Source: a bacterium
Lineage (GTDB): Bacteria > Krumholzibacteriota > Krumholzibacteriia > G020349025
Length of the DNA: 64,000 nucleotides
Reading direction: 5' to 3'
NCBI GenBank assembly: GCA_031362565.1
Contig: JANLSU010000069.1
Coordinates: 32,001-96,000 of the forward strand
Shown: positions 36,076 through 60,356 of the stretch, piece by piece
How the letters are laid out: every line of letters begins with the position of its first letter
Numbering within the stretch: position 1 is the stretch's first letter
The notes under the pieces: model-generated
What the model was told of the DNA's origin: nothing
Database searches by the model: none
Seen by the model: only the letters and a program-made list of their open reading frames with translations
Program-made: the position numbers and the translations under genes

Positions 36076-36954
36076 CTACCGGTACGTGTTCTTCACCCGG
36101 CTCCAGGTTGCCGAGACCGCGCCGACCGAGCAGTCACCGAAGGTCGTGGTCACATGACCGGTGCTCGAGGCGCCTTGAATGAGGTCCTGGCATCCTGGAA
36201 TGATCCATTTCAGTCCAACGGGAATCGTATAGGCCACATCCAGGGTGACCACATCGGTTCCGACTTCTGTCCACGACAAACTAAATTTGCCATTCGCGTC
36301 CGTCGTTCCGCTGCCACTGCCGGGGATGACGTGACCGATCGTCCAACTGATCGGCACGTTGGGCATGGGTTGACCGTTCTGGTCGAAGAGCGTCGCGGTG
36401 ATCGTCACGGCGCTGCCCGGCGTCGGGCAGGGCGGCGAGGGTTGCGGCGTGAAGATGAGTGACGTCGGAGTCGGCGGCACCGTGGCGGTTTGCGCCGCCG
36501 CGATGATGGCTCGCGCCGCGTCGAAGACCGCGGTGTCGCTTCCGCCGGTTGAAATATCGACCCCATCGCTGAAGTGCCAGAGCGCGAGCTGCACAGCTGC
36601 CTTGCGCTGCACGTCCGTGGCCAGTTCACTCGGCATTCCGGGCACGGTGGGGTAGTAGTTGTTCAGGATCCACACGACTTCTTGAGACGTGATGTTGGGG
36701 CCCTGGGCATATGTCGCTGGATAGCAAAGGTTCGTTCCCGAGCGCACGCAGTACACGACGGTTGGCGTGACGCAGTCGATCTTGCCGTTGAACGTCCCGG
36801 CGTAGACCTGCTGGCCGCCGCGGAGATTGGGGTGCGACAGGATCATGTCATCGCCGACGATGTCGCCCAGATTCGGCGAAAGGCAGAGGTTCGAGGCGTG
36901 AGCGGCAAGAGGCGATAGGAGTACGATTAGTAATAGGATTAGCACTCGTCGCAT
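36076..36954 (-). CDS. secreted thioester-domain (TED/TQXA-like) protein with Ig-like domain and WxxxKxxYR tail
   Basis: AAAGGA RBS; signal peptide; VYCV, WILNNYYP, AAVQLALWHFSD; Ig-like ITATLFDQNGQP..TTDANGKF; ends ATWSRVKNTYR. Confidence 0.75.
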   Translation of the reverse strand: MRRVLILLLIVLLSPLAAHASNLCLSPNLGDIVGDDMILSHPNLRGGQQVYAGTFNGKIDCVTPTVVYCVRSGTNLCYPATYAQGPNITSQEVVWILNNYYPTVPGMPSELATDVQRKAAVQLALWHFSDGVDISTGGSDTAVFDAARAIIAAAQTATVPPTPTSLIFTPQPSPPCPTPGSAVTITATLFDQNGQPMPNVPISWTIGHVIPGSGSGTTDANGKFSLSWTEVGTDVVTLDVAYTIPVGLKWIIPGCQDLIQGASSTGHVTTTFGDCSVGAVSATWSRVKNTYR

Positions 36955-37184
36955 TTCAATCCTTTCGAGGGATGGGCAGTACCCGTCCCATAAGGTGTTT
37001 CCTACAAGAACTGCATCTTGTTCGTCGAACCTGCGCCAGCCGCGAGGTTCCGCCGCTGTCAAGAATGAATGCGACGATTGTAAGCGATGGACTGCCGCGT
37101 AGACAAGGACTTAGGAGGGGCACCTTGGCAAATTCGCTCGGCCGGTGGGCCACCTCCTCAAACTTCTGGATTGACCGGCCTTGG

Positions 37185-37544
37185 TCAGGTGAAGCGGGCG
37201 GCTGGCGTTCGCATCCAGCGTTCCACCTGGTCAGGCGTTAGTCTTCGCTCGTTCAAATACCACGCCGCGAATTCCGCTTCTCCGAGCCGCCAAAGGACGT
37301 TCGCCGGCGGCGTTCCCCAGCAGGCGACCACAATGCGGTCGCTGAGCCATTGGTAGTGAGCGGCGCAGAGACACAACACGTCGCGGAGTTCGGGCGGCGG
37401 ATCGTCGTTCGGTTCGAGGCCTCCCGGAATGTGGACCCGGCCGCGCGCGGTGCAGCCTGGCGCGTCGCAACGGCCTCGCGGCCTCGAGTGGGCGTACTCT
37501 TTGTCGCTCGGTGGTAACGGAGCGCGAGGCGGTGTCCTGCCCAT
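37185..37544 (-). CDS. degenerate HNH-like zinc-binding domain protein
   Basis: GGAGAG RBS; RCDAPGC...LCLCAAH...WRLG...WYLNERRL; HNH His residues absent. Confidence 0.5.
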   Translation of the reverse strand: MGRTPPRAPLPPSDKEYAHSRPRGRCDAPGCTARGRVHIPGGLEPNDDPPPELRDVLCLCAAHYQWLSDRIVVACWGTPPANVLWRLGEAEFAAWYLNERRLTPDQVERWMRTPAARFT

Positions 37545-37925
37545 TTGCTCTCCCACGTTTGACCCGCGCGGCCCCAGGACCGCGCACCATGGGGGCATCG
37601 ATCGTGCCCGAATGAAAGCAGCCTGGGGCGGCCGCATTGTCACCAGCGCTTCGACGAAGCCTTGTACCCTTCGTGCCCAACGGCTGTAAACCTCGATTTA
37701 CAGATGGGCGCTGATCAGGTCGCACCGGCTGTTCAGTGTGCCGGTGTATCCGAAGGACACCGTGACCGCCTGCGCCGGTGCGCCCGCACCCGCAAACAGG
37801 AGGGCGAAAGCCAGGATCGCCGCGCCGGCCGGGTGTGCGCATCGGGTTGCGTTTCGCTGCTCTGGATCTTGGAAAAGCCTAGGCGATTTTCGAGCCGGGT
37901 GCAATGCGCGAACTGGCTCTTGGAT

Positions 37926-40595
37926 TCACTGTTTGAGCGCTCTCGGCCAGTTCTGGATCAATCTTGCGCCGATCTTGCTTGGATCCGCGGCGGGAAGCTC
38001 GTTGGTCAGGATTCGCTTTCCATCGGCGCTGACCGAGTACTCGGCACTCACAACAGTGACACTGACACCGAAGAGGACGTTCGGTGCCCCAAAGGAGAAA
38101 CGCGCCTCCCCGGTCACGGGGACAGCGGCGATCGCACTCCCCCTTTCATAGAAGAGCTCACGACCGTCGGGGCGCCAGACTGGGTGTGACGCACGGCCGG
38201 GGACGGTATCGCTGGAGACGATCCAACGTCCTCCAGCGGTGGGGAACGACTGTACATAGATCTCCTCTTTCCCCGATTCGTACGACGTGAATGCGAGCCA
38301 TTTTCCGTCGGGCGACAGGCGGGCGTCCTCGAACCAGTTCCCCGAAAGCAGGGGCACAGCTTGGGCCTTCTGGACGTCGAGTGTCCAGATGTCAGAGCCC
38401 TTCGGATTCACCCGGTTGAAAAACATCAGACGCCCATCGTTCGACCAGTCGGTCAGCTCGATCTGCTCGCCCGCCGAGAACAGCAACCTGGGTTCGCCTT
38501 GCCCCGACGCCGGGCCCACGTAGATCTCGCCCTTGCCGCTTCGTGAGGACACAAACGCCACCTGGCTGTCGTCCGGCGACCACAGGGGCGTCCTGTCGTC
38601 GGCGGGATCGAAGGTGAAGCGGGTGCGCATGTCGCGCTTCAGATCGTAGATCCAGATGTCACCCGCATCCTGTCCGACCGAGACCGCCATGCGGGTCCCG
38701 TCGTGCGAAAGGCGCGGCTCAAAGTGGCCGGCTGGATCGCTGAGGATCTTCAGGACTTTCCCGTCGCGATCGCGCCATTGGAGCACGGTGCTCGCGGCTC
38801 CAGCACCTCGCAAGTGGGCCAGCACGCCGGACTCCGAAGTGCCGAACTCGGCGCCGCCCCAGGAAACCGCGCCACCAGGAACGTCGGCTGCCAATGGAAT
38901 CGGATCGCCCGTGAATTGCAGTTTGGACACGTCGAAAGGATGGGCCATGAGCGTTGATCCGGCGCGGTAGAGAAGATACCCGCGAGCGTAGATCGCCCGC
39001 GAATCGGTTTTCCGGAGGAACCGTACCTCCTTCGAGCCGAGAGAGCCGAGGTAGATGCCGCTGTATTCACTGCCAGGGTTCGTGGTGCTGACAACATAGA
39101 ATAGGAAGTGCTGCCCATCCGGCAGGAAGTGCGGCCACCGGTGCGCAACATCGAAACGATCCTTGTTCAAGGTCGTCAACGGTTCCGGAGTACCACCGCT
39201 GGCCGAGACCTTCATCAGTCCTTCGCTCCACGCCTTCTGGAAGAGGATGATGCCGTCGGCGTTCCATGTGCCACCCCGGCCATCGGTGGCATCACACAGT
39301 GGAATCACCGGTCCACCCTTGGCTTCGATCTTGTTGAGTCTACCGTTGGCGAAGAAGCCAAGCCAACGGCCGTCCGGGGACCAGAACGGGAACGCATCGC
39401 CGTCAGCGCCGGCGAGTCGACGCGGTTCCGGCAAGTCCAGGTCGCAAATCCAGATGCTGTTGGACCCGGCGGCAGTGGACTCATTGCCGGGTCGTGCGAT
39501 GGCCACGTAGGCGATCTGGCTTCCATCGGGACTCACGGCGAAAGGCGAAGCCGGTGCAAAATCCCACCCCGCAGGAGGCAGGAGAGTGGACTGGACCAGA
39601 GGCTGTATCGGCGCATCCGTGCGTAGGAAGGCCATCGCGGCGCCCAACGCCGCCAACACCACTACTGCAAGCATCCAAGCCAGCCGTTCGCGTCCCAAAC
39701 GGGAAGCGCGCTTGGTGGCGGGTTGCAAGACGGATTCGTCGCTGCGCCCGGCCTTCAGGTCCTCCAACGCAATGCGCGCTTCGGCGATCGCTTGGAGACG
39801 GCGCGACACGTCGCGCTCGAGGCAACGGGTGATGATTCGACGCAGGGCGGGGGGTGTGTTGTGCGGGAGTTGATCCCACGGCACATCGGCGCGCAGGACA
39901 CCGGCGAGAGTATCGGAAGCAGTCTCGCCGTCGAAAAGACGTTTGCCTGTGAGCATCTCGAAGAGCACGACGCCATAGGCCCAGATGTCAGCGCGGTAAT
40001 CGGCGCGCTTGCCGCGGGCCTGTTCGGGTGACATGTAGGCCGCCGTGCCGAGAATGACACCGGCCTGCGTCATCCCGGTGATGGTGGGGGAGTGTTGCAG
40101 ATCGGTTCCGGACCCATGCTCATCCATGTCAATTCGCGCCAAGCCGAAATCGAGGATCTTGAGTTTGCCTTCCGATGAGATCTTGATGTTGGCTGGCTTC
40201 AGGTCGCGATGGATGATGCCGACGGCATGCGCGGCAGCGAGGCCCTCTGCCAGTTGAACGCCCAAGTCGACGACTTCATCGACGGGAATGGAACCCGCCT
40301 GCAGGCGCTGGCTCAAATCTTCGCCATCGACCAGTTCCATGACGAGGAAGCGGACGTTGTCGGCGCTTTCAAAGCCGTAGATGCTGGCGATGTTGGGATG
40401 TTGCAATGTGGCGAGCGTCCGAGCTTCGCGCTCGAAGCGCGCCAATCGCTCGGGGTCTCTCGACATTTCAGTGGGCAGAACCTTGATGGCGACATCCCGG
40501 CCAAGCTTGGTGTCGCGCGCCCGGTAGACCTCGCCCATACCACCTTTGCCAATCGAGCCGGTGATCTCGTAGTGGGCGAGCCGTTTGCCAATCAA
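37926..40595 (-). CDS. Ser/Thr protein kinase with TM helix and TolB/PD40 beta-propeller
   Basis: intact kinase motifs, one TM helix, WSPDG repeats. Confidence 0.92.
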   Translation of the reverse strand: MIGKRLAHYEITGSIGKGGMGEVYRARDTKLGRDVAIKVLPTEMSRDPERLARFEREARTLATLQHPNIASIYGFESADNVRFLVMELVDGEDLSQRLQAGSIPVDEVVDLGVQLAEGLAAAHAVGIIHRDLKPANIKISSEGKLKILDFGLARIDMDEHGSGTDLQHSPTITGMTQAGVILGTAAYMSPEQARGKRADYRADIWAYGVVLFEMLTGKRLFDGETASDTLAGVLRADVPWDQLPHNTPPALRRIITRCLERDVSRRLQAIAEARIALEDLKAGRSDESVLQPATKRASRLGRERLAWMLAVVVLAALGAAMAFLRTDAPIQPLVQSTLLPPAGWDFAPASPFAVSPDGSQIAYVAIARPGNESTAAGSNSIWICDLDLPEPRRLAGADGDAFPFWSPDGRWLGFFANGRLNKIEAKGGPVIPLCDATDGRGGTWNADGIILFQKAWSEGLMKVSASGGTPEPLTTLNKDRFDVAHRWPHFLPDGQHFLFYVVSTTNPGSEYSGIYLGSLGSKEVRFLRKTDSRAIYARGYLLYRAGSTLMAHPFDVSKLQFTGDPIPLAADVPGGAVSWGGAEFGTSESGVLAHLRGAGAASTVLQWRDRDGKVLKILSDPAGHFEPRLSHDGTRMAVSVGQDAGDIWIYDLKRDMRTRFTFDPADDRTPLWSPDDSQVAFVSSRSGKGEIYVGPASGQGEPRLLFSAGEQIELTDWSNDGRLMFFNRVNPKGSDIWTLDVQKAQAVPLLSGNWFEDARLSPDGKWLAFTSYESGKEEIYVQSFPTAGGRWIVSSDTVPGRASHPVWRPDGRELFYERGSAIAAVPVTGEARFSFGAPNVLFGVSVTVVSAEYSVSADGKRILTNELPAADPSKIGARLIQNWPRALKQ

Positions 40596-43258
40596 GGAAG
40601 TCTCCGCTCGATCGCTGCGAGCCAGTTCAACTCGATGGTGATCGACAGTGCCTGCGGCTGCCCCGCGGGCACGGCGGCCAGGATGCGTTCGCCATCCGGG
40701 GAGAAATCGACACCCGCGACGTCCGAACGCAGCTTGAAGAGTTCACGCGGTGCACCGGCGCGAAACGCGGTGCCCGTCGTCACGTCAGCCGCCATCACGG
40801 TGAGTCCATCTCCGGCCAGGAACATCAACTCCTTGCCGCTGCGCGTCCAGCGCGTGGAGCGGATTTCGGTGCCGCCGCTCGATACCTGGTATTTGGCACC
40901 GGGCAAGGGGAAGGACTGCACGAAGAGCTCCGTGCGCCCGGATTCGTCACAGTGGTACGCCATCCACTTGCCGTCCGGTGAGACCATGCCGCGGCGTTCC
41001 TCGAAGCGGGTGTGTACGAAGGAAGTCGGTTCGTGTTTGCCATCCTGCGACACCAACAGAATGTCCCAGCCGCTGATCGGGTCCGGCCGAGAAAACACGA
41101 TTGCCGTGCCATCCGCCGACCACGAACTCGGCTCCTTGAACAAGGCACCACCGGTGAGCACCGGGATTTCTTCCGACGCGCCGCTCGTGTTTTTCACGAA
41201 GATGTCATCGGGACCGAAACGATCTGACGCGAACGCGATGCGGCTGCCGTCCGGCGACCATGCGATGGTGTAGTTGGACGACGGTCCGAAAGTGAAGCGC
41301 GAGGGTGCCGGTCGATCGACATCGATGAGCCAAATGTCACTCGCCGCAACCGCCGACCGCCGCACTGCAGCGACGCGCATGCCGTCCGGAGACAACCGAA
41401 CTTCTTCATGGCGGCCGGCAGGCACTGGAATCTCGCCGGCCGGTTTTCCCGTGCGGTCATACCACTGGAGAATCGTATTCGGGAGCCCCATGCCCCAGGA
41501 CGAGAGCACGCCGTTGTTCGACGCCGATACGACCGCGGCGCCGGTCCAAGCCGAAGGCGCGGGCGCCTCGCCCAAACTCACTGGTTCACCGCCCGTCGCC
41601 AGCCGACCCGTGTCGAAGCGTTGTGCGACCATCGTCTTGTCGCGCATGTAAATCAAATATCCCGGCTCCGCGTAGATGGGAGCGCTGTTCGCCGTGAGCA
41701 GGAGCTTGCGCTCCTTCGAGTTGATCGAGCCGACGAAGACCTCGAAGTTTCCCAGCGTCGCTGGTAACGCCACGAACAAAAAATGCTCGCCATCAGGAAG
41801 GAAAAAGGGCCAGCGGTGGCCGGTTTCCTTGCGAGCCTCGTCAAGAACAGTGACCGGCACGACTTCGCCACCACCTTCGCTCACGCGATAGAGCGGACCG
41901 GCGGACTCGGGAGCGAAGACGATGACGCCTTGGCTGCCCCAGCTTGCACCGCGACCAGAACCCACGGCGCAGAGAATCTCCGCCGGGCCACCTGCGATTG
42001 GGACCTTCCGGAGTTTGTTGTTGCCGAAGAACCCAAGGGAGCGACTGTCGGGGGACCAGAAAGGGAGGGATCCGTCTTCTGTTCCCGCCAACGGCTTCGC
42101 CCCGAGTGATTCCATCGGCCGGACCCAAAGCGAAGCTTCCCCCGTTGTCGTCGAGGCCAGCAACGCGAGCGTGCGTCCGTCGGGTGAGATCCTGGCCATC
42201 ACGCCATCGGGGAGGAGTGTCGCGTTCGGCAATGAGCCGATCGAAAAGCGGGTCGGTGTTCCTTGCGGCACGGTGGATCGCGTCCGCGTCGCGAGCAACG
42301 CCAGTGCCGCAACTGCCACTGTGGAGGTGACCGCGACGAGGACCCACGCCACGCGTTCGCGCCCGGAGCGCCGTGTCGCGATGATTGCCGGAGCAGCGGC
42401 AGCAGGGGCACTTCCGGGATCAGCAATCCAGCGCAGCTCACGCGCCAGGTCGCCGGCGCTTTGCCAGCGCTCGTCGGGATCCTTCGCGAGGCAACTCTTC
42501 ACGACGCGATCGAGCGCCGCCGGGGTCGTCGGAACGAACTGCGACACCGGCCGCGGATCTTCCTTCAGAATCGACGCGATGACACTCGCTTGACTCTGGC
42601 CTTCGAAGGCGCGCTTGCCGGTCAGCATTTCGTAGAGCAATGCCCCGAACGCGAAGAGATCGGCGCGATGATCCACCGCCTTGCCCTCGAGCTGTTCGGG
42701 AGCCATGTATTGCACCGTGCCGAGCATGGTGCCCTGCGAGGTCAAGGGTGTCGTCCGCGTTGCGGCATCGACGATCGCTTCGTCGCGCAACTTCGCGACA
42801 CCGAAATCGAGAACCTTGGCGCCGGTCTTCGTCACCACGACGTTGGCGGGCTTCAGATCGCGGTGCACGATCCCCTGCTTGTGCGCCGCGGCCAAGGCAT
42901 CGGCGATTTGGGCGGCGATCTTGAGCGCCTCGTCGACCCGCAACGGCCCGTGTTCGAGCCGCGCCGCCAGCGTCTCGCCGTCCAAGAGTTCCATCACGAG
43001 GTAGTCCGCATCGCCCTCGCGACCCACATCGTACAAGGTGCAAATATGCGGATGGTTGAGCGACGAGATCGCGCGCGCCTCGCGTTCGAAGCGCTCGCGC
43101 AGGTCGGCGCTGCTCGAAAGATGTGCCGGCAGGATTTTCACTGCGACGTCGCGTCCAAGACGCGTATCCTTCGCGCGGTACACTTCCCCCATGCCACCCG
43201 CGCCGAGCGGCCCGAGGATTTCGTAGGGACCCAGACGAGTACCAGGCGTGAGTGACAT
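40592..43258 (-). CDS. Ser/Thr protein kinase with TM helix and TolB/PD40 beta-propeller
   Basis: MSLTPGTRLGPYEI; intact kinase motifs; SPDG repeats; 4-nt overlap with the downstream paralog. Confidence 0.92.
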   Translation of the reverse strand: MSLTPGTRLGPYEILGPLGAGGMGEVYRAKDTRLGRDVAVKILPAHLSSSADLRERFEREARAISSLNHPHICTLYDVGREGDADYLVMELLDGETLAARLEHGPLRVDEALKIAAQIADALAAAHKQGIVHRDLKPANVVVTKTGAKVLDFGVAKLRDEAIVDAATRTTPLTSQGTMLGTVQYMAPEQLEGKAVDHRADLFAFGALLYEMLTGKRAFEGQSQASVIASILKEDPRPVSQFVPTTPAALDRVVKSCLAKDPDERWQSAGDLARELRWIADPGSAPAAAAPAIIATRRSGRERVAWVLVAVTSTVAVAALALLATRTRSTVPQGTPTRFSIGSLPNATLLPDGVMARISPDGRTLALLASTTTGEASLWVRPMESLGAKPLAGTEDGSLPFWSPDSRSLGFFGNNKLRKVPIAGGPAEILCAVGSGRGASWGSQGVIVFAPESAGPLYRVSEGGGEVVPVTVLDEARKETGHRWPFFLPDGEHFLFVALPATLGNFEVFVGSINSKERKLLLTANSAPIYAEPGYLIYMRDKTMVAQRFDTGRLATGGEPVSLGEAPAPSAWTGAAVVSASNNGVLSSWGMGLPNTILQWYDRTGKPAGEIPVPAGRHEEVRLSPDGMRVAAVRRSAVAASDIWLIDVDRPAPSRFTFGPSSNYTIAWSPDGSRIAFASDRFGPDDIFVKNTSGASEEIPVLTGGALFKEPSSWSADGTAIVFSRPDPISGWDILLVSQDGKHEPTSFVHTRFEERRGMVSPDGKWMAYHCDESGRTELFVQSFPLPGAKYQVSSGGTEIRSTRWTRSGKELMFLAGDGLTVMAADVTTGTAFRAGAPRELFKLRSDVAGVDFSPDGERILAAVPAGQPQALSITIELNWLAAIERRLP

Positions 43259-44069: not shown

Positions 44070-44139
44070 GACGAGCCCTTCCTTCGGCCGCGATTGTGTA
44101 CCGGCGGCGCTTGCCGCGGTCATCGAGGCAATCCTACAG

Positions 44140-45010: not shown

Positions 45011-47710
45011 ATGTCCGATGACGTGACTTCGGCCTCGAGCGGAACGCCCGACGGCGAGCCGACTCTCGCTGCCGATGCGAGCCTCTCTGCCGCCCCACGC
45101 CCTGGCCCCACCTCACCGTCCGGCGCTGCACTCTTGCAACTCGGCCGTTATCGGATCCTGCGCGTCATCGGCGAGGGCGGGATGGGCACGGTCTACGAGG
45201 CCGAGCAGGACAAGCCGCGCCGGACCGTCGCGCTGAAAGTGATCAAGCCCGGCTTCGCCACGGCGTCGCTGCTGCGGCGCTTCGAGCAGGAGTCGCAAGT
45301 GCTGGGACGTCTGCAGCATCCGGGCATCGCGCAGATCTACGACGCCGGCACCGCCGATGCGGGGCACGGCCTGCAGCCGTACTTCGCGATGGAACTCGTC
45401 CGGGGCCAGATGCTCGACGAGCACGCGGCCCGGCAAAAGCTCAACCTGCGCCAGCGCCTCGAACTCGTGGCGCGAATCTGCGACGCGGTCGAGCACGCGC
45501 ACCAAAAAGGCATCGTGCACCGCGACTTGAAGCCGGGGAACATCCTGATCGACGAGTCGGGTCAGCCGAAGATCCTCGACTTCGGCGTGGCACGCGCGAC
45601 GGACTCGGACGTTCAGGCGACGATGCAAACCGAGATCGGTGCGATCGTCGGCACGCTGCCGTACATGAGCCCGGAGCAGGTCGGAGCTGACCCGACGGAG
45701 TTGGACACGCGCAGCGACGTCTATGCCCTCGGAGTCATTCTGTACGAGCTGCTCGCCGGCCGCCTGCCGTACGACCTCAAGCAGAAGTCGTTGCCCGAGG
45801 TGGCGCGGATCATCCGGGAGCAGGATCCGAGCCGCCTCAGTTCGGTGAGCCGGACGCTGCGCGGCGATGTGGAGACCATCGCCGCCAAGGCGCTGTCCAA
45901 GGAGAGAGAACGCCGCTACCAGTCGGCCGCCGAACTGGCCGCGGACATCCGGCGCTACCTGAAGGACGAACCGATCGTGGCTCGTCCTGCGAGCACCGCG
46001 TATCAGCTGCGCAAATTCGCCCGAAGAAACAAGGCGCTCGTTGGAGGAATGGCCGCGGTGTTCGTGGTGCTGGCGATCGGCGTGGTTGTCAGCTTGTTCC
46101 AAGCGCTGCGCGCGACCCGCGCCGAGAAGTTGGCCACATCGAGCCTCGCCGACACACAGGCGGCGCAGACGCTGGCCGAGAGCCGGCAGCGAGAATCCGA
46201 GCAAGCGCGCCGCCTGGCGGAGGAGCGCCGAACGGAGGCCGAAGCACAGAAAGCCGCCGCGGAGCAGGCGCGGGAATCGGAGGCCGAGCAGCGCCGGGCG
46301 GCCGAGGCCAGCGCCGAGCGCGCCAAGCAGGAAACGGCGAAGGCCGAGGCGGTGAATAGGTTCTTGCAGGACATGTTGTCGTCGGCTGATCCAACGCAGA
46401 TGAAGGGGCGCGACGTGACCGTCCGGCAGGTGCTCGACGAGGCGGCGAAGAAGGTCGGTGCGGGATCGCTCGCGAGTCAACCGGAGGTCGACGCCGCAGT
46501 GCGTACCACGCTGGGCACGACATACGAGACCCTGGGGCTCTATCCCGAGGCCGAGCCGCATCTGCGAGCCGCACTCGAGATCCGGAAGCGGTCACCTGGC
46601 GCGGGTCAGGTGGACTTGGCTTCGAGCCTGAACGGCCTCGCGGTGGTGCTCGAAGACCGAGGCGACCTGGCCGGTGCCGAGCCGTTGCTCCGCGAGGCGC
46701 TGGCGATCCGGCGCAAGGCTCTCGGCGACGAGCACGAGAGCGTGGCCACAAGTCTGAACAACCTCGCGAACCTGCTCAAAGCCCGGCGCGACCTGGCCGG
46801 TGCCGAGCCGTTGTACCGCGAGTCGCTGGCGATCTATCGCAAGGTTCTGGGCGACGAGGACCCGAGCGTGGCGGCGAGCCTGAACAACCTCGCGGCGTTG
46901 CTCAAGAGCCGGCGCGACCTGGCGGGTGCCGAGCCGCTGTACCGCGAGTCGTTGGCGATCCGGCGCAAGGCTTTGGGCGACGAACACCCGAGCGTGGCCA
47001 CAAGCCTGAACAACCTCGCGATGTTGCTCAAGGCCCGGGGCGACCTGGCCGGTGCCGAGCCGTTGATCCGCGAATCTTTGGTGATCTTGCGCAAGGAGCT
47101 GGGCGACGAGCACCCGGACGTGGCCCGGAGCCTGGATAACCTTGCGGGTGTGCTCCGAGACCGGGGCGATTTGGCCGGTGCCGAGCCGCTGTACCGCGAG
47201 TCCCTGGCGATCCGACGCAAGGCTCTGGGCGATGAGCACCCAGACGTGGCCGATAGCCTGGACGACCTCGCGAGGTTGCTCAAGGCCCGCGGCGACCTGG
47301 CCGGTGCCGAGGCGCTGTCTCGCCAGGCGCTTGCGATCTGGAAGAAAGTACTTCCGGCGCGCGATCCCGAGATTGCTTCCGGCATGGCGAATCTCGGGGA
47401 CTGCCTCATTCGCCAAGGCCGCTACGCGGACGCCGAACCGTTGCTCACGGAAGCACTGTCCATTCGCGAGGAAAAGCTACCGGGCCACTGGAGGCGATTC
47501 GACACGCGGAGCATGTTGGGCGAAGCGTTGGCGGGGCAGAAGAAGTTCGTTGAAGCGGAACCACTACTCCTTCAGGGGTACGAGGGCATGAAAGACAGCG
47601 CGGCGGCCGAAGCGATTCTCAAGCGCGACGCCCTCGAGCGCATTGTGCATCTGTACGAGTCGTGGGGCAAACCGGACAAGGCCGCGGCCTGGCGCGTGGC
47701 GCTCGAGTAA
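45011..47710 (+). CDS. Ser/Thr protein kinase with TM helix and kinesin-light-chain-type TPR repeats
   Basis: GEGGMG, HRDLKPGN, DFG, SPE; TM helix; coiled coil; SLNNLA..AEPLYRESLAI repeats. Confidence 0.93.
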   Translation: MSDDVTSASSGTPDGEPTLAADASLSAAPRPGPTSPSGAALLQLGRYRILRVIGEGGMGTVYEAEQDKPRRTVALKVIKPGFATASLLRRFEQESQVLGRLQHPGIAQIYDAGTADAGHGLQPYFAMELVRGQMLDEHAARQKLNLRQRLELVARICDAVEHAHQKGIVHRDLKPGNILIDESGQPKILDFGVARATDSDVQATMQTEIGAIVGTLPYMSPEQVGADPTELDTRSDVYALGVILYELLAGRLPYDLKQKSLPEVARIIREQDPSRLSSVSRTLRGDVETIAAKALSKERERRYQSAAELAADIRRYLKDEPIVARPASTAYQLRKFARRNKALVGGMAAVFVVLAIGVVVSLFQALRATRAEKLATSSLADTQAAQTLAESRQRESEQARRLAEERRTEAEAQKAAAEQARESEAEQRRAAEASAERAKQETAKAEAVNRFLQDMLSSADPTQMKGRDVTVRQVLDEAAKKVGAGSLASQPEVDAAVRTTLGTTYETLGLYPEAEPHLRAALEIRKRSPGAGQVDLASSLNGLAVVLEDRGDLAGAEPLLREALAIRRKALGDEHESVATSLNNLANLLKARRDLAGAEPLYRESLAIYRKVLGDEDPSVAASLNNLAALLKSRRDLAGAEPLYRESLAIRRKALGDEHPSVATSLNNLAMLLKARGDLAGAEPLIRESLVILRKELGDEHPDVARSLDNLAGVLRDRGDLAGAEPLYRESLAIRRKALGDEHPDVADSLDDLARLLKARGDLAGAEALSRQALAIWKKVLPARDPEIASGMANLGDCLIRQGRYADAEPLLTEALSIREEKLPGHWRRFDTRSMLGEALAGQKKFVEAEPLLLQGYEGMKDSAAAEAILKRDALERIVHLYESWGKPDKAAAWRVALE
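46610..47345 (+). repeat. intragenic TPR repeat, about 6 x 126 bp
   Basis: DLAGAE-encoding GACCTGGCCGGTGCCGAG-like unit at 46664, 46790, 46916, 47042, 47168, 47294. Confidence 0.9.
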
Positions 47711-47772
47711 GACGGAACGGGGAACAAAACGGCGGCCACGCTCGCGCGCTCCAACCGATCGCTGCGCGCGGA

Positions 47773-51449: not shown

Positions 51450-51456
51450 CACCGCC

Positions 51457-52989: not shown

Positions 52990-53276
52990 GATTCCTTCCC
53001 ACTCCCCACCACACTGAGCCAGCCTCGCGAGTGGACGCAAGACAAGTAGCAAACCGAGGCCGAGCGCGACAATATTTTCCGTCACGGTCGCGAGGTCGAC
53101 GCGGCCGCCTTCGACCTCCGGTTCTCCCGCCGGTCACGCGGGGTGTCCAGATCGACGGCCGGGGCGCCTACAGGCTTTCGTGGTCGCGCGTCGCCCGCGC
53201 GCGGTCCGGAGGCGTATGCGTCTTCGACTTGAAGCTCGACGGCTGCATCAGGTCATCTCGAAGGAGGACTTCCGCC

Positions 53277-54308
53277 ATGCGATTCAGAAGAGACGTGAGG
53301 GGCCTCATCCTGCTGGGAATGATCACGACCCTTGCGGCATCCCTGACGGCGGGAGTTCAGGCGAGGGCTGACGACCAGCCTCCACCGCTGTATTCCTCCG
53401 CGCTTGCGTACGACCAGGCCCGTGGCCGTGTGGTTCTGTTCGGCGGCTACCTCGCAGGTCAATACTCGGGCGATACCTGGGAGTGGGATGGCGCGCATTG
53501 GGCGCGCGTCAGCCGATCGGGTCCATCCCCGCGTAACGGCCCAGCCGTGGCCTACGACAGCTTGCGCCAGCGCGTCGTGCTCTTCGGCGGCGACCACGGT
53601 GCGCTGGCCTTCGGCGACACCTGGACGTGGGACGGGACGGCGTGGACGCTCGTGGCGTCGAATGGCCCACCGGCTCGCTCGTTGCATCGGATGGTGTACG
53701 ACTCGTGGCGCCAGCGCGTCGTTCTCTTCGGCGGCCGTACGAACACGACGATGTTCGGCGACACCTGGACGTGGGACGGGGCGAATTGGGCGAAGGTCGA
53801 TTCGACCGGCCCGGCGCCGCGCTTCTTGCATGCATTCGCGTGGGACACCGGACGCGGGCGAGGCGTGCTGTTCGGTGGCAACCGCGCGCTGGGCCCCTCG
53901 ACCGACGCCGATCTTTACCTCGACACCTGGGAGTGGGACGGGACACGTTGGGACTCGGTCGCGGCTTCCGGCCCTCCGGCACGCGATCACACGGCGCTCG
54001 GGTTCGATCCTGTGCGCCGGCGCGCCGTGCTCTTCGGGGGATCGGGCCCGGAGGCCGCAGGTTTTCTGGGAGATACGTGGGAGTGGAGCGGTGCCACATG
54101 GGAGCATGTCACCGATTCCGGCCCCGGGCCGCGGGCCGGCGGGATGCTCGTGTACACACCCCAATCGGCGATCCTCCTCTATGGAGGCTTCGCACAACAG
54201 GGTCCCTCGACCGAGCTCTGGTCATGGAACGGCGGAGATTGGCGGCGCGTGCTTCCGGTCGCAGTTGAAACCGCCCCCTGGAGCAGGATCAAGAGGCGCT
54301 ACCGTTAG
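53277..54308 (+). CDS. secreted Kelch-like repeat protein with WxxxKxxYR tail
   Basis: AAGGAGG RBS; six YD..R.VLFGG..DTW.WDG..W repeats; ends VETAPWSRIKRRYR. Confidence 0.88.
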   Translation: MRFRRDVRGLILLGMITTLAASLTAGVQARADDQPPPLYSSALAYDQARGRVVLFGGYLAGQYSGDTWEWDGAHWARVSRSGPSPRNGPAVAYDSLRQRVVLFGGDHGALAFGDTWTWDGTAWTLVASNGPPARSLHRMVYDSWRQRVVLFGGRTNTTMFGDTWTWDGANWAKVDSTGPAPRFLHAFAWDTGRGRGVLFGGNRALGPSTDADLYLDTWEWDGTRWDSVAASGPPARDHTALGFDPVRRRAVLFGGSGPEAAGFLGDTWEWSGATWEHVTDSGPGPRAGGMLVYTPQSAILLYGGFAQQGPSTELWSWNGGDWRRVLPVAVETAPWSRIKRRYR

Positions 54309-54514
54309 GCCACCGCCGTCGCGATTGCCTCGAACCTGGAGGGCGAGGCCGTCCGCAATGAGGCTCTGTCGATCGCGCGAGCCTTCGCCGATGGGCAGAC
54401 AGGCGATGGGGTCAAGCTGCGGTGACGGCGACGCTGGAACGACAGACCCGCCAGGCTTTCGCACCCCGATCCAACCGGTTACATTGAAGTCTCTCGCCGG
54501 TTGGAGCCGAAAGC

Positions 54515-56257
54515 GTGGACCAGTCTTCGCGCCCTCTGGTACGCCGCGGACGGCGCACAGCGTCCGCACTCGCCGTGTGTTGCGTGGTGTTCGTGGCGCA
54601 CCCCGCGGCGTCGCGTCCCGTCGTTGGTTCGGCGCTCGCGCGGGTTCTGCCGCGGCTCGGCCCACACGAATTGGTGACGGTCTGGGTCGACTTGCGCGAC
54701 GATCCGTCCGGCGCTCCATCACCCGCGTTTCAGGTCTCCGAGCGTGCCCGGCAGCGCCGCCTGCGGCGCGGCGACCCGGCGCTTGACGCCGGCGATCGCG
54801 CGCTGGACCCACAGGTGATGGCTGCGGTGCGTGCCCGGGTGACGCGCGTGCGTGCCGTGTCGCGTTGGCTGCGGTGCATGAGCGTTGAGGCGACGGCCGC
54901 GCAAGTTGCGGCGCTCGCGATGCTCGCGCCGGTCACCGCGCTCGAGTGCCTGCAATGCGGATCACCTTCCATTGCGAGTCTTCCGTCCGAACCCCGAGTC
55001 GCGGCACCGCCCTACGGCAGTTCGGCACAGCAACTCGCGCTGCTCCGCGTTCCCGAACTGCACGACCGCGGGCTCACCGGACTCGGCGTGCTCATCGCGC
55101 ACTTCGATACCGGCTACGAACGCTTCACGCACAAGGCGTTCCGGGCCATGCGCGTCGTCGCCATGCGAGATTTCGTCGACGGCGACGGCGATCCCACCGG
55201 CGCGCACGGCTTTGGCTTCGATCAGGGCGTACACGGCATGATCACCTTATCGGCGCTCGGCGGTTTCCATCCCGGCAAGCTCATCGGCCCGGCCTTCGGT
55301 GCGAGCTTCGCTCTGGCGCGCACCGAGAGCGAGTTCTCGGAAGACGCGCGCGAGGAGGATTACTGGATCGCGGCCCTCGAATGGGCCGACAGTTTGGGGG
55401 CCGACATCGTCAGCTCGTCGCTCAAGTTTCGTGAGAATGACAATGGCGGCGGTTACACCTGGCTCGACATGGACGGCCAGACGGCGCGCGTGACGCGCGC
55501 CGCCGCCATGGCCGAGCGCCGCGGGATTCTCATCGTGAATGGCGCCGGCAACGATGGTTTCGATCCGGCGCACAACACCCTGGTGGCTCCCGCTGACGGC
55601 GTCAACGTGCTCGCCGTGGGCGCGGTGACTCTCGGCGGCTCGCGCGCCAGGTTGAGCAGTTGCGGCCCGACGACGGACGCCGTGCCGCGCACCAAACCCG
55701 ATGTCATGGCACCGGGGGAGGATGTCTTCGCGGCATCGGTCGAGAGCGACAGTGCGTACGCGCTCGTTTCGGGCACATCGCTCTCGTGTCCGCTGGCAGC
55801 CGGCGTCGCGGCGTTGCTGCTTTCAGTGCACGACGCCACGCCGGCGCAACTGCGCGACATCCTGCGCTCGACCGCGACCGGTGCACATTCGCCCGATAAC
55901 TTGTGGGGCTGGGGCATCATCGATGCGGTGGCCGCGTACAACGCGCTCGTCGCTCTCTTCCCGACGGACGCGCAAGAAACCTGGGACGTGGCCCGCACGC
56001 CGCGCTTCGCCAACCCGTTCCATCCTCGGGACACGATCGCGTTTGCGTGGTCTGGACCGTCGCCGTTCGAACTGTGCGTCTACGACATCACCGGGCGGCA
56101 CGTTCGGACGCTCGGCCGCGGTGCAGCAGCTGGCGAACGCCGCATTCGCTGGGATGGCACCGGCGACGACGGCGCCGCCCTACCGCGCGGCGTGTATATC
56201 GTCCAGTTGCACGGGCTAAACGCCCCGCCGGCGCGCAAGCTGACGCTCCTGCGCTGA
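54515..56257 (+). CDS. S8 subtilisin-family serine peptidase with FlgD-Ig C-terminal domain
   Basis: triad FDTG, HGM, SGTSLSCP; AGN oxyanion motif; KPDVMAPG; tail YDITGRHVRTL..KLTLLR; start uncertain. Confidence 0.92.
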   Translation: MDQSSRPLVRRGRRTASALAVCCVVFVAHPAASRPVVGSALARVLPRLGPHELVTVWVDLRDDPSGAPSPAFQVSERARQRRLRRGDPALDAGDRALDPQVMAAVRARVTRVRAVSRWLRCMSVEATAAQVAALAMLAPVTALECLQCGSPSIASLPSEPRVAAPPYGSSAQQLALLRVPELHDRGLTGLGVLIAHFDTGYERFTHKAFRAMRVVAMRDFVDGDGDPTGAHGFGFDQGVHGMITLSALGGFHPGKLIGPAFGASFALARTESEFSEDAREEDYWIAALEWADSLGADIVSSSLKFRENDNGGGYTWLDMDGQTARVTRAAAMAERRGILIVNGAGNDGFDPAHNTLVAPADGVNVLAVGAVTLGGSRARLSSCGPTTDAVPRTKPDVMAPGEDVFAASVESDSAYALVSGTSLSCPLAAGVAALLLSVHDATPAQLRDILRSTATGAHSPDNLWGWGIIDAVAAYNALVALFPTDAQETWDVARTPRFANPFHPRDTIAFAWSGPSPFELCVYDITGRHVRTLGRGAAAGERRIRWDGTGDDGAALPRGVYIVQLHGLNAPPARKLTLLR

Positions 56258-56379
56258 GCCTGCGCCCCCGCAACATGCCCCGGCTGCCCGGCTTCACCCG
56301 TTGGATCGCATGCGTGGGTAGAAGATCGGCTAAAATCCGCTGGCGTTGAACGCCCGAAGTCGTTGATTGTCCGGACGAC

Positions 56380-56411
56380 GGCCCCGTAGCTCAGTTGGAC
56401 AGAGCGGCGAT
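56380..56411 (+). pseudogene. 5' fragment of a tRNA gene (tRNA-Arg-like)
   Basis: GGCCCCG-TA-GCTC-AGTTGGACA-GAGC: acceptor 5' strand, U8/A9, perfect D-arm; no T-arm or acceptor 3' strand follows. Confidence 0.65.
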
Positions 56412-56508
56412 ATGTCATGCCTTCCACTGATGCCACGTGGAACTTGAAGTGATGACGCGTGCACGGGAGCGTACTGGCGACGTTTTGGTGCCCTGGCCCA
56501 TCTGGTCC

Positions 56509-56589
56509 GCCTAACATGCCGTTGCACCGGCGCGGGTCCCCTCGCGTGGCCCGCGCCCACTCTATCGGTACAGCGACTTGACGTTACCC
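56509..56589 (+). other. degenerate attC-like site
   Basis: GCCTAAC core containing a stop codon, 5-nt spacer, GTTGCACC, internal hairpin, imperfect complement GGTACAGC, then GTTACCC. Confidence 0.4.
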
Positions 56590-56621
56590 CAACTGTTTTT
56601 TTACGTCGCCACGGAACCGGT

Positions 56622-56655
56622 GAAGCCGCGACGGACGTGCGCCCGTCGCGGCTTC
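56622..56655. terminator. strong hairpin downstream of the SRPBCC gene
   Basis: 13-bp stem GAAGCCGCGACGG/CCGTCGCGGCTTC; no clear U-tract. Confidence 0.45.
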
Positions 56656-56680
56656 CTCGCTCGACTCGAAGGCGCGCGCC

Positions 56681-57499
56681 TTAGCCCTGCGGTTCCGCCG
56701 GCGCCGCCGGCTGCGGGAAGCGCTGGTTCATCCACGCTTGCCACGCGGGCTCGTCGCGCTTCGCCGCTGCCGCTGCTCCGGCGCCGAAGAGATAGAGACT
56801 GACCGAGGCCATCAGCCCGCCGCAGACCTGTGCACCGAGGATCGCGACGCCCGGCGCCGGCTCGTCGATGCGCACCACGAGCCCTTGCCCCTGCTCCATG
56901 CGGGTCGCGCGCTCGACGACGCCCGCAAACGGCGGCACGCCCGCCGCCCTTGGCCCGGTGCGCGCACCCGGCTTCGCGTCCGCGAGACCCAGTGGTCCAG
57001 CGAGCGTTGCCCACGCCTCGGACGGTGATCCGGTGGCCATGGACATGAGCAGAACCGAAGCGCTCGGCTCGCCGAAGTGTTGCGCGAGGTAGACGCGCAG
57101 CACCTCGAAGAATTGCGGCCAGCCTTCTTCCATGCCCTCGAGCTGCCCGTCCCAGTCGTCGGTGCTCGCGAACAGACTGTGCACGACGCGAACGACACAC
57201 TTGCCGCCGCTCCGCGCTTCGACGATCCACTCCGTCGCCATGGGGGGCGCGTTCGGTCCGAGACCTTCGCTCTCGGCCACGAAGCGGTGCAGCGGTTCCC
57301 AGGTCTTGACAGTCGAAGTCGAGTCCATGCCGGGCGCCCAGTGCATGGTGATTTTGTCGCCGTCGATCTCGGTGGGATAGAACCACGACGAGATGCCCGG
57401 ACCTGTGGCGATCGCGTGCCACACTTGCTCGGGCGTGCCCGGGACCTCGGTTTCGACGGAGATGCTGCGGCGCCCCGTCGAGTCCTTCTTCACGCTCAT
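56681..57499 (-). CDS. SRPBCC/AHSA1-like domain protein
   Basis: EVPGTPEQVWHAIATGPGISSWF, VVRVVHSLF, GWPQFF; 4-nt overlap with upstream regulator. Confidence 0.88.
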   Translation of the reverse strand: MSVKKDSTGRRSISVETEVPGTPEQVWHAIATGPGISSWFYPTEIDGDKITMHWAPGMDSTSTVKTWEPLHRFVAESEGLGPNAPPMATEWIVEARSGGKCVVRVVHSLFASTDDWDGQLEGMEEGWPQFFEVLRVYLAQHFGEPSASVLLMSMATGSPSEAWATLAGPLGLADAKPGARTGPRAAGVPPFAGVVERATRMEQGQGLVVRIDEPAPGVAILGAQVCGGLMASVSLYLFGAGAAAAAKRDEPAWQAWMNQRFPQPAAPAEPQG

Positions 57500-58089
57500 G
57501 TCGTTTCCCCCTGGTTCGAGAATGGATGCGCGATGACGATCAGTCGGTGCGAACGGCCTCCTGGCGTTGCGGCGTCGTGATAGCGGGCGACGAGCGACGC
57601 GACGGCCGTCGTGAGTTCTTTGCCGAACGCGGCGCGGTCGGCGGCGGTCTTGAACCGCACCTGCGTGTCGATCGACAGCGTCGCCAATCGCTTGTCCTTG
57701 GCGCGCGCCAGGCGCACCATGCCGCCGACCTCGCGGATGATCCGGGCAGCGAGAGCGATCAGGTAACTCGCGGACAGGCGATCGGCTTCGCGACCGGGGT
57801 CCGGCGCGGCCGGTCCGAGTGCGCCGGGGGAGATGACGTAGGACGCTGCCGTCGCGACCATCCGGCGCTCGGTCAGGCCGCCCCAATAGCGCTCCTCGGC
57901 CACGCCCACCAGCCCGTTCGCCTCGAGCGCACGCAGGTGATAGTTCACCTTCTGGCGCGCGACGCCAAGCCTGGCCGCGAGCCCGGCGGCCGACGCCGGC
58001 TCCACCAGCTCGGCGAGGAGCCGGGCGCGGGTCGGGTCCAGGGCGATTGCGGCGACCGCCGGGTTCTCGATCACTTCAAGGTCGATCAT
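57496..58089 (-). CDS. ArsR-like helix-turn-helix transcriptional regulator
   Basis: ALDPTRARLLAEL..SAAGLAARLG.ARQKVNYHLRALE. Confidence 0.9.
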   Translation of the reverse strand: MIDLEVIENPAVAAIALDPTRARLLAELVEPASAAGLAARLGVARQKVNYHLRALEANGLVGVAEERYWGGLTERRMVATAASYVISPGALGPAAPDPGREADRLSASYLIALAARIIREVGGMVRLARAKDKRLATLSIDTQVRFKTAADRAAFGKELTTAVASLVARYHDAATPGGRSHRLIVIAHPFSNQGETT

Positions 58090-58095
58090 CGGCTG

Positions 58096-58125
58096 AACCT
58101 AACATTGACAGTTTTGTTTGTCAAT
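58096..58125 (-). promoter_or_regulatory. sigma70 promoter overlapped by a palindromic operator; leaderless transcript likely
   Basis: TTGACA-17 nt-TAGGTT-6 nt-ATG on minus strand; ATTGACA-N8-TGTCAAT at 58104-58125. Confidence 0.7.
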
Positions 58126-58267
58126 ACTTCCTCGGCTGGGGACTCGGCGAGCCCGGGCGGCCCGGCCGCCCGCGGACTTTCGACGCCTGCAACTGACGGG
58201 GCGCTACAGCGCGGACGCGGTTCGCACCTTCGCTCAGCAACTTGGTATGGCGAGGCATGATGAAATA

Positions 58268-59492
58268 GGTTGTGCCCTGGAGATTGTTTCCGCCGCGGGT
58301 GCAGAGGACCGTCGACCTCACGAGTTCGTCCCGTCAGAAGGCGTATGTGAGTGAGTGCGGTGTATTGCGCGGCAGCGCCGGTGTCTGCACGAGCCGCCTG
58401 TAGTATTCGTCCCAGCGGTTGGGTAGTTCCGTTCGAGTTCGGAACAATCGTGTTTCAAAGACATCCCGCACCTTGAGCGGCGACTCGAGCAACCCCTTGA
58501 GCATGGCCGGCGTCCGGCGTTCGCTCTTTTCCCAGCGCCGCTTCATGTAGTTACGCCACACGATGAAGATGGCAAGGCGCTCTGCCGAAGCCTGGCGGCG
58601 CTTGGACCAAGCAAGGGTCTCGCGCCGGTGGTTGGCTTGGCTGTGCCGGAGGAGCAGGTCGACCAGGTTGATCTCGAAGAGCGGGTTGTGTGCATCACGC
58701 CGGGCCCGGGACGAGGTGATTTCATGCTCGACCGGGCATCCGAGAGTCGCCAACGCCCGGGGATAGGCGTGGTGATCGTCGCTCCGGATGGTGAGCGCCG
58801 GCACCTTGCTGAACGCTGCTTGGAGCACGTGCGCCACATCCTTCTCGACGGCTTTGGGGTCCGGCCTGCCGAGGCGTGCCTCGAGCTGTTCGCGCCGGCG
58901 CTTTTGCCGGCTCGTCATGCGGCCCTTGCGGCGCAGTGGACTGTCGGTGAAGTGCTGGATGAACCCCGTGTCGACCTCGGCGAGCAGATGATGCTGGAAC
59001 GGGAAGAATTGGCTGTACTCGAACGACTCGAAGCTGTCGAGGACGACCGGGCCCTGGGGACTGGCTCCCCGCGCCAACTGGGTGTGCAGAAGCAGGCAGT
59101 GCCGCCCGATGCGCGCCAGGGTGCGATCGATCGTGGAGGGCGCCGCCAGCACGTCACGCGCGATCTGCCGGTTGGCCATGCCGCCCACGGCCTTCATGAA
59201 GATCTGGCTCGGCAGATCTGGACGCTTGAGCCAGTAGGTCGTCGAGAACGTCTGCTTGCTGAAGGAACGGCGGCAACACAAGCATGTAAACCGCGGCACC
59301 ACTTGCGGGGTGCTCTGACGGTGGTAGAACCCCGCCCGCTTCCAGCGCCAGCCGGCCGCCAACTCGCGGTGGTACGAGCACTTGGGGTTCGGGCAGAAGG
59401 GCGGTTCGAACCGTGATTCCTCTTTGATGACGGTCGCCATAGACCGCCATCCATGCACCCTTCACACCAAGCACATTCTCCGCGGCACAACC
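58268..59492 (-). mobile_element. IS1-family-like insertion sequence, 1225 bp
   Basis: terminal inverted repeats GGTTGTGCCCTGGAGATTGT (58268-87) and ACATTCTCCGCGGCACAACC (59473-92), 17/20 match, flanking one transposase ORF. Confidence 0.8.
58334..59440 (-). CDS. transposase, IS1-like (Zn ribbon, HTH, DDE-type core)
   Basis: CPNPKC..C..C, NRQIARDV HTH, LDSFES, RSDDHHAYPRA, WRNYMK..TPAM..GL. Confidence 0.8.
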   Translation of the reverse strand: MATVIKEESRFEPPFCPNPKCSYHRELAAGWRWKRAGFYHRQSTPQVVPRFTCLCCRRSFSKQTFSTTYWLKRPDLPSQIFMKAVGGMANRQIARDVLAAPSTIDRTLARIGRHCLLLHTQLARGASPQGPVVLDSFESFEYSQFFPFQHHLLAEVDTGFIQHFTDSPLRRKGRMTSRQKRRREQLEARLGRPDPKAVEKDVAHVLQAAFSKVPALTIRSDDHHAYPRALATLGCPVEHEITSSRARRDAHNPLFEINLVDLLLRHSQANHRRETLAWSKRRQASAERLAIFIVWRNYMKRRWEKSERRTPAMLKGLLESPLKVRDVFETRLFRTRTELPNRWDEYYRRLVQTPALPRNTPHSLTYAF

Positions 59493-59648
59493 GAAGTCTT
59501 TCGCCGGTTCCAGTCACGGCTTGACTGCCACGCGCGGCGCCTGCAGACTCTAGGCGTCAGGTTGAGATCGGATGTCCGTGGGCTGGGGGGGACGCCGCCC
59601 AGTTCGGTGGGCACGCATGTACTACATCATCGAGAAGGAGTCTGCCCC

Positions 59649-60356
59649 GTGCGCACATCGCTCTCGCTTTCCATCGCTCTCGCTTTGCTCGTTCAAGCGA
59701 CCTCGGCTGTCGCCGTCGTCACCACGATCCGGACTGGCCAGGTCGCGGGGGTCCCAGGATCTTGCAATGGGAACGACGACACTTTCCGCTTCTACGCACC
59801 GAACCCCAACTGCGGACAGCCGATTCTGTCTACCGCATTCGCAGCTGCCGACTTCAATGCCGCCTGCGCGGGGCCGCAAGCTGTTGTCATCCAACCACTC
59901 AACGGAGTCTGGACCTCGAGTCTCGACTGCGATGCCGACGCGCGTTGGATCTCTACCGCAACCAATCCCGGCAGCTGCTTCGGCGCCCCGACCTCCGCTT
60001 TGTACTGTGCACGGTTCGACGCCAACTGCACCGTCGCCGACAGCGTTCGGATCTGCTGGGCCGTGGACGATTTCCTTGGCGATCCGCCGTCCTTCCCGGG
60101 ACCGAATCCGGACGGGATTTACATCAACGGCACGAGCCTCGGCGCGGCCTTCAGCGGTCCCGGCTCCAATCCCACCTACACCGCCGTGGCCACCAACGTC
60201 CCGTTGATCAACGGCTTCAACAGCCTCGAGGTCTATCAGCGGGACGCAGGTTGTGGACTTGGTGGGCTGATCCTGAGCGCCAACATCTACACGCACTGCG
60301 GTACCGTGCAAACCGAATCGATGAAATGGGGAATGATCAAGTCGCTGTACCGCTGA
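59649..60356 (+). CDS. secreted Cys-rich jelly-roll-like protein with WxxxKxxYR tail
   Basis: AAGGAG RBS, GTG start; signal peptide; ARWIS, AVDD..IYING, GFNSLEV; ends VQTESMKWGMIKSLYR. Confidence 0.8.
   Translation: MRTSLSLSIALALLVQATSAVAVVTTIRTGQVAGVPGSCNGNDDTFRFYAPNPNCGQPILSTAFAAADFNAACAGPQAVVIQPLNGVWTSSLDCDADARWISTATNPGSCFGAPTSALYCARFDANCTVADSVRICWAVDDFLGDPPSFPGPNPDGIYINGTSLGAAFSGPGSNPTYTAVATNVPLINGFNSLEVYQRDAGCGLGGLILSANIYTHCGTVQTESMKWGMIKSLYR

Follow-up and report, generated by a model that had tools for sequence, protein, structure and literature searches.

The window analysed here is a 64,000-nucleotide stretch of a bacterial genome of 5.4 Mb and 65% GC, to which we refer as G000 (other genomes, contigs and loci carry handles in G, C and L). 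Three of its genes encode proteins that end in the same 16-residue tail, V-x6-W-[SG]-x-[IV]-K-x-x-Y-R, with a stop codon directly after it. A preliminary description had singled out these endings as a candidate sorting signal; its coordinates, strands and translations agree exactly with ours, all three proteins have signal-peptide-like N-termini as it had proposed (according to our own heuristic, not SignalP), and their passengers are indeed unrelated, with pairwise BLAST E values of 0.84 or more. Our results indicate that the tail very likely serves as a signal, for addressing or for anchoring, that a specific protein recognizes. The genes and tails are the following, with scores from a position-specific scoring matrix (PSSM):

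36076-36954, minus strand: thioester-domain protein (PF08341 and Big_1), 292 residues, signal-peptide-like N-terminus, carries the tail
36076-36126, minus strand: tail copy 1, 16 residues and stop, 38.4 bits
53277-54308, plus strand: Kelch-repeat protein, 343 residues, signal-peptide-like N-terminus, carries the tail
54258-54308, plus strand: tail copy 2, 16 residues and stop, 36.0 bits
59649-60356, plus strand: Cys-rich protein of no known family, 235 residues, 10 Cys, signal-peptide-like N-terminus, carries the tail
60306-60356, plus strand: tail copy 3, 16 residues and stop, 43.7 bits

The motif is abundant in G000 and concentrated at protein ends. In a six-frame search with the core W[SG].[IVL]K..[YF], 84 of 85 matches fell at most nine residues from a stop. 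The iterated PSSM recovered 130 termini, all at 22 bits or more, while none of 91,499 pseudo-termini used as control reached 10 bits; three further copies with longer extensions lie just beyond the PSSM window, and no copy was found deep inside any G000 protein. The consensus is [CG]-[PTV]-[VT]-[AGS]-V-E-x-x-[TS]-W-[SGT]-x-[VIL]-K-x-L-[YF]-R followed by the stop. W (97%), K (97%) and Y/F (99%) are well conserved, whereas the V seven residues before W is found in only 56% of the tails and is better replaced by the V five residues before it (71%). The tail ends nine residues after W in 88 of the 130 proteins, the other 42 lying off this modal distance. The Lys four residues after W is present in 126 tails and replaced by Arg in four, yet the genome uses 2.3% Lys against 7.8% Arg.

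The tail proteins are enriched for signal peptides, as the preliminary description would have it: with our own gene calls and heuristics, which are not SignalP, the strict version identified signal peptides in 59/114 tail proteins versus 344/3193 other genes (odds ratio 8.9), and the loose version in 95/125 versus 866/3193. Their passengers form 78 BLAST clusters. Matches among them include choice-of-anchor N, DNRLRE, CHRD, DUF4082, DUF4114 and ice-binding domains, all known from anchored surface proteins, as well as NHL, PD40, fn3 and phosphoesterase. The largest family, with 25 members in G000 (e.g., L171:253-786 and L159:18409-19578), has a Cys-rich domain of about 170 residues in which Pfam models detect nothing and Foldseek finds a cohesin-like fold (E 4e-6, TM-score about 0.52).

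Regarding its shape, the tail is not a transmembrane (TM) segment, in line with the earlier claim: just one of the 130 tails reaches a mean hydropathy of 1.6 over 17 residues. Its amphipathic character was also borne out (helical hydrophobic moment of 0.54, versus 0.37 in shuffled tails), and its net charge is +1.8. In two AF2 models the passenger is a confident beta-sandwich and the tail a low-confidence linker with a short helix, which places the tail outside the passenger's folded domain. The predicted layout is a linker or short strand, P-[VT]-x-V, that leads into an amphipathic helix with W, V/I, L and Y/F on one face. Low-molecular-weight penicillin-binding proteins have C-terminal amphipathic helices as membrane anchors, and the tail could similarly attach periplasmic proteins to a membrane face, which would agree with its hydrophobic moment, charge and predicted helix. 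We consider this unlikely, as the helix has just about 7-9 residues, the preference for Lys over Arg in an Arg-rich proteome and the fixed W and Y/F argue for a specific reader, and the passengers swap with surface-sorting signals (see below).

No available model describes the tail. Scans of 88 tail proteins with NCBIfam, of 85 with Pfam, and of 63 isolated tails gave no model covering it. On the same sets, there was no match at E <= 1 to the models of the C-terminal domain (CTD) by which a type IX secretion system (T9SS) recognizes its cargo (TIGR04183, PF18962, PF13860), nor to those of the type B and C domains (TIGR04131, PF13585; cl41395 is not in those libraries). The tail is too short for a type B or C domain of about 100 residues, it has no three-stranded sheet or beta-sandwich of at least about 40 residues with motifs B, D and E, and it does not combine a motif with a TM helix and a basic cluster, as signals of the PEP-CTERM, LPXTG or GlyGly-CTERM type do. 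The ESM Atlas returned no usable match, and we found no description of the motif in the literature (subscription papers and supplements were outside the search); we thus call the tail undescribed relative to the literature searched and to Pfam and NCBIfam only. It lies outside every catalogued CTD class and likely works like one. The preliminary description had listed four findings that would speak against a sorting signal; on all four counts the tail proved to be the reverse, that is, common in the genome, enriched on exported proteins, outside the folded domain and without an existing HMM.

Other exported proteins of G000 carry a CTD of the FlgD-Ig form, and three genes of the window served for comparison:

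54878-56257, plus strand: FlgD-Ig/T9SS CTD protein, with a paralogue on G000:C31 that has the short tail
29790-32102, plus strand: large exported protein with FlgD-Ig CTD
5982-10985, minus strand: peptidase C25 protein ending in a CTD-like domain

The two kinds of ending exclude each other, consistent with what had been suggested. A genome-specific FlgD-Ig profile identified 229 open reading frames (ORFs), 224 of them with the domain at the terminus; none of the 130 tail proteins matched this profile, and none of the 229 CTD proteins contained the tail motif anywhere, so that the two sets do not overlap. At the same time, the endings are exchanged on related passengers, an observation that we made directly in alignments. 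Four tail proteins of G000 have CTD-bearing paralogues that align in register up to the junction (six alignments, 33-55% identity); the window gene at 54878-56257 and its tail-bearing paralogue on C31 share 50% identity over 321 residues. Among 249 tail proteins from other genomes, 36 have an in-register homologue in G000, with endings that are a tail (35), a CTD (2) or a TM-type tail (1). The gene with the TM-type ending (41% identity over 348 residues) adjoins an exosortase-like gene. A terminus of the form hydrophobic-hydrophobic-basic is found in 61/130 tails and 135/224 CTDs, versus 30/3251 other genes. Cargo size differs markedly: tail proteins have a median of 237 residues and exceed 500 in 1 of 114 cases, CTD proteins have a median of 768 and exceed 500 in 166 of 207. 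Genomic clustering is weak, with 43 of 130 tail genes near CTD genes (random mean 32, maximum 43) and 40 near one another (random mean 25, maximum 40). We also noted a small tail gene (G000:C55:175902-176675) directly downstream of a 2300-residue CTD protein and resembling the domain that precedes its CTD; it looks like a duplication of that domain with a changed ending.

The tail is not confined to this genome. In the window's phylum, which we take to be Krumholzibacteriota, a degenerate DNA pattern matched 207 of 208 genomes, as often as 82 times per genome (reversed-pattern controls, 0-5); it was also found in 120 of 121 sampled genomes of a phylum labelled Eisenbacteria, and in all 10 of a third, small phylum. 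A stricter pattern was present in 38 of the 71 genomes in G343's phylum, in 19 of 61 labelled Zixiibacteriota (one match each), and in 2 of 61 labelled Planctomycetota, where only the seed genome had tail-like matches, on four separate contigs that are possibly misbinned. Matches at L070, L096 and L115, on contigs labelled Planctomycetota, Limnocylindria and archaeon, may have the same explanation. Among the matches listed in a GTDB scan, most came from metagenome-assembled genomes labelled Eisenbacteria, Krumholzibacteriia, Latescibacterota and Gemmatimonadota. A profile search gave 382 matches at E <= 0.001; nearly all of the 150 listed were C-terminal by inspection, and of nine matches fetched, two (P0241 and P0276) were repeat false positives. 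The strict pattern had no matches in viral contigs, and a tblastn search of plasmids with a protein of the single-copy gene described next found none. A similar ending may also occur in Poribacteria.

In the class of a genome labelled Melioribacteraceae (Ignavibacteria), the pattern occurs in 68 of 71 genomes, and exactly once in 66. At 13 of 14 loci fetched (one cut by a contig end) it belongs to the same gene of about 130 codons, which we call the founder. It encodes a signal peptide, a single fibronectin type III-like (Fn3) domain and the ending H-x-V-S-S-V-K-R-T-W-G-S-I-K-A-[ML]-F-R; in 12 of 13 loci the downstream gene is one that we take to be maf-like. Homologues named "hypothetical protein" were found in Ignavibacteriales, Melioribacter and Rosettibacter (656 matches), and a related gene occurs across Hymenobacter (251 matches). 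In G546 and G602, presumably Rhodothermia, P-T-A-V stands directly ahead of the tail helix. The founder's Fn3 domain also occurs in larger proteins, up to 53 per genome. We picked 16 large proteins from the top matches; in every one the domain ends 82-96 residues ahead of the stop, and the CTD profile matched 13 of the 16 (2 weakly). Since the Fn3 domain precedes a CTD in these proteins, many genes join it to the CTD and a single gene joins it to the short tail.

Across genomes, the tail was found together with T9SS machinery. G000 encodes SprA, two PorU proteins over the curated cut-off, 13 C25 peptidases and at least eight PorV-family barrels. In a sample of 201 Bacteroidota genomes the pattern was present in 75; of these we accepted 64 as canonical and discarded 11 as noise. 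SprA was found in all 64, and none of the 39 SprA-negative genomes had a canonical tail, a contrast inflated by related genomes that are not independent. Nearly every tail-positive genome tested had SprA, with G490 as the one exception, and all five other genomes checked had PorV-family genes (9-22 profile matches each); PorU, too, turned up in the genomes examined for it. An operon of PorU, PorV and an M6-like inactive metalloprotease is conserved in G000, G371, G650, G566 and G477, and the PorU-linked PorV proteins form one clade across six genomes (support 99/97). Based on the positional swaps and on the co-occurrence with SprA, we link the tail to the T9SS and, judging from sequence, we lean towards the SprA/PorV/PorU pathway as its reader, the tail being a miniature alternative to the CTD.

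Several features of these loci deserve mention in their own right. In four distant lineages (L266-L269) the operon reads PorU, PorV, M6-like protease, a peptidase-MA/PD40 protein of about 1040-1140 residues and a protein of about 300 residues with a weak DUF5683 match. At L143:9840-18369 (G000:C85), two tandem PorU genes, 91% identical and both above the NF033707 cut-off, lie upstream of PorV and an M6-like CTD protein. At loci L144, L146 and L147 (G000:C83 and C86), a cassette recurs that consists of a TonB-dependent receptor, a large exported protein and a PorV-family barrel. G000, G546 and G566 encode SprA and members of the PorV family, and G000 and G566 encode PorU as well, but no GldN was found in them, which leaves a T9SS-like machine whose motor and ring could not be recognised. 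Within the window, four large genes (22606-25668, 37926-40538, 40592-43258 and 45182-47710) lie in one 25-kb stretch, with N-termini that by eye resemble Ser/Thr kinases.

The junction between passenger and tail can be compared with the known cleavage sites of PorU. PorU cuts at X/(GSA)(VLI) (PMC4560394), and in Prevotella at PT/GI, with the Ile at +2 best conserved and R, K, H, D or N accepted at +1 (PMC11969387). In G000, 90 of the 130 tails have [AGS][VI] at -6/-5, fitting both sites. In type A CTDs, a Lys that contacts PorV is almost invariant (PMC10994853). The constant feature of the junction is the P-[VT]-x-V spacing.

Braun's lipoprotein is attached by an L,D-transpeptidase, and the near-invariant Lys of the tail might similarly be an amine acceptor for a transpeptidase (PorU or L,D-transpeptidase), the tail proteins being covalent anchors or cross-link partners and the founder a housekeeping acceptor. 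PorU does transfer cargo to amines, peptides included, and the founder contains little beyond one Fn3 domain and the tail; the published acceptor preference, however, is an N-terminal (GS)(VLI) (PMC4560394), and we see little probability in this explanation.

A number of observations weigh against the SprA/PorV/PorU pathway as reader. The presence of SprA does not predict the tail: 98 of 162 SprA-positive Bacteroidota had no match to the canonical pattern, although some carry variants and at least 8 have the founder gene by profile, and in the phylum of G343 SprA was found in 70 of 71 genomes and the pattern in 38. Among genomes with Bacteroidia-like SprA scores, only 1 of 49 had the founder. 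A search of G000 that did detect its positive controls found no GldN, although it may have missed distant homologues, and no GldM was found in five genomes, in which no control was detected either; without these two components the energy source is left unexplained. At -6, Pro is present in 55% of 157 tails among the GTDB-scan matches listed and in 85% of 27 tails of G301, the CTD junctions of which have no Pro at this position. CTD junctions in G000 favour [TS]D[VA] (69/211 versus 15.7 expected), and a PSSM derived from tail junctions scored 61 on CTD junctions, not above all control windows (25-70). Given the Pro mismatch and the PSSM, co-variation of tail and CTD junctions is unsupported; G004, G478 and G345 had too few CTDs for this test. 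The Lys is at -5 in the tail and at -6 in the CTD, and the tail is predicted to be helical. The translocon pocket is described as recognizing chiefly the size and shape of the CTD (PMC10994853), the type A signals described so far are beta-sheet domains of which the shortest have about 40-55 residues and three strands (PMC11969387), and T9SS types A, B and C are all domain-sized, with B and C regions of at least 100 residues (PMC10202324). Finally, some database proteins hold two to four tails, some of them internal, an arrangement that fits a module for binding no less than a signal that is read a single time.

This last observation brings in the possibility that the tail is a non-covalent docking module (strand and helix) by which small proteins are tethered to a scaffold or glycolipid, at the surface or in the periplasm, and not itself an export signal. 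Four tandem copies at a single C-terminus, internal copies after duplicated domains, the 42 of 130 tails off the modal distance from the stop, a Pro at -6 that in many lineages speaks against cleavage, and the cohesin-like fold of the largest passenger family are all consistent with it. Under docking, however, the strict exclusion of the CTD (0/229) would be unexpected, as tethered proteins still require an export signal; no copy was found deep within any G000 protein; and in the Bacteroidota sample canonical tails occur only in SprA-positive genomes. On these grounds we regard docking as rather improbable, though worth keeping in mind. We note here that at least four tail proteins have lipoprotein-type signal peptides (e.g., L155, G000:C63:16789-21813, and G000:C34:26383-27774); in related database proteins, two or three duplicated domains are each followed by a copy of the tail.

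Other candidate readers were considered. The M6-like protease adjoining PorV (NF052323) was rejected as a required reader: no match turned up in 10 founder-positive genomes, G676, G546 and G602 among them, and all 10 founder-negative genomes of one SprA-positive group had it, in a survey that scored eight candidates per genome and may have missed some. Exosortase was likewise rejected, as founder-positive G371 and G650 have no PF09721 match; the family is present in G000, G208 and G334. The reader might instead be another outer-membrane protein, such as the peptidase-MA/PD40 protein, which probably has a C-terminal barrel; its gene is in the PorU-PorV operon of G650, G371, G566 and G477, with paralogues in G000 and homologues in tail-positive G676, G546 and G602. 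It is also present in tail-negative G566 and G577, and weakly in G545, so its profile does not discriminate, and we deem it very unlikely. A complex predicted for an Ignavibacteria-class PorV (residues 25-388) and the C-terminal 32 residues of that genome's founder scored 0.02 against a mark of 0.32; as controls were not folded, this score is evidence neither way.

With the SprA/PorV/PorU pathway as reader, the following mechanism can be proposed. The tail, a C-terminal module of its own with 16-17 residues that is found on small proteins with a predicted Sec signal peptide, would likely be recognized by the SprA translocon together with a PorV-family barrel, and its carriers would thereby be directed to the cell surface. 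Once Sec has exported the protein, the helix and the invariant Lys may dock on a PorV-family shuttle at SprA, as the CTD Lys does. In those lineages in which the residue at -6 is small, PorU could next cut at [TV]/[GAS][VI] and link the passenger to a glycolipid of the surface. In those in which it is Pro, the tail would probably remain uncleaved and keep the protein attached to its barrel, which is what has been proposed for type B CTDs. Tentatively, and with appreciable doubt, we suggest that the tail may represent a fourth class of T9SS signal: a 16-residue strand-plus-helix peptide older than Bacteroidia, read by an ancestral T9SS without GldKLMN. This peptide would have spread, in several candidate phyla, to more than 100 small cargoes in each genome, while Ignavibacteria and Hymenobacter would have kept it as one conserved Fn3 accessory protein.

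If a fourth class exists, a folded CTD would be dispensable for T9SS export, and a peptide tag could route proteins to the Gram-negative surface. A helical 16-residue signal would also revise the view of a translocon that recognizes a folded beta domain, and would bear on T9SS-like machines with no detectable Gld motor outside Bacteroidia. The tail is on 2-4% of the genes in genomes like G000 and is near-universal in three candidate phyla; since it has no family model and no description that we could find, much of the predicted surface proteome of these phyla is unannotated. By database names, the founder occurs in cultured genera (Hymenobacter, Melioribacter, Rosettibacter), which makes the tail accessible to experiments, and a short export tag could find use in surface display.

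Among known systems, PEP-CTERM/exosortase and LPXTG/sortase (PMC1569441) also rely on a short C-terminal tag present in many copies on unrelated exported proteins. Their passenger domains overlap with those of the tail, and one cross-genome swap with a TM-type tail was seen. Unlike their signals, the tail has no TM helix (save in 1 of 130), and it is found in genomes with no detected exosortase (G371 and G650).

The type A CTD of T9SS (TIGR04183/PF18962, here in the PF13860 form) resembles the tail in its C-terminal position on signal-peptide proteins, in the passengers themselves, in the spacing of the junction (P-[VT]-x-V approximating PT/GI), in a near-invariant Lys near the end, in the hydrophobic-hydrophobic-basic terminus, and in the presence of SprA, PorV and PorU in the genomes. 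Type A CTDs tolerate C-terminal extension (PMC11285876), another likeness. The type A CTD is a sheet of 3-7 strands, and short forms of 40-55 residues are known from Prevotella intermedia (PMC11969387); the tail, in contrast, has 16-17 residues, is predicted to be helical, lacks motifs B and D, has an invariant Trp, and in many lineages has Pro at the would-be P1' position, apart from the differences in Lys register and cargo size given above. Type B CTDs have their own barrel partner and are probably uncleaved (PMC10202324). Types B and C differ from the tail in having about 100 residues or more. The tail genes do not cluster with a gene for a partner barrel, except at one C86 locus. Type B (TIGR04131/PF13585) and type C are nonetheless alternative classes of signal served by one translocon, which is the arrangement that we propose for the tail.

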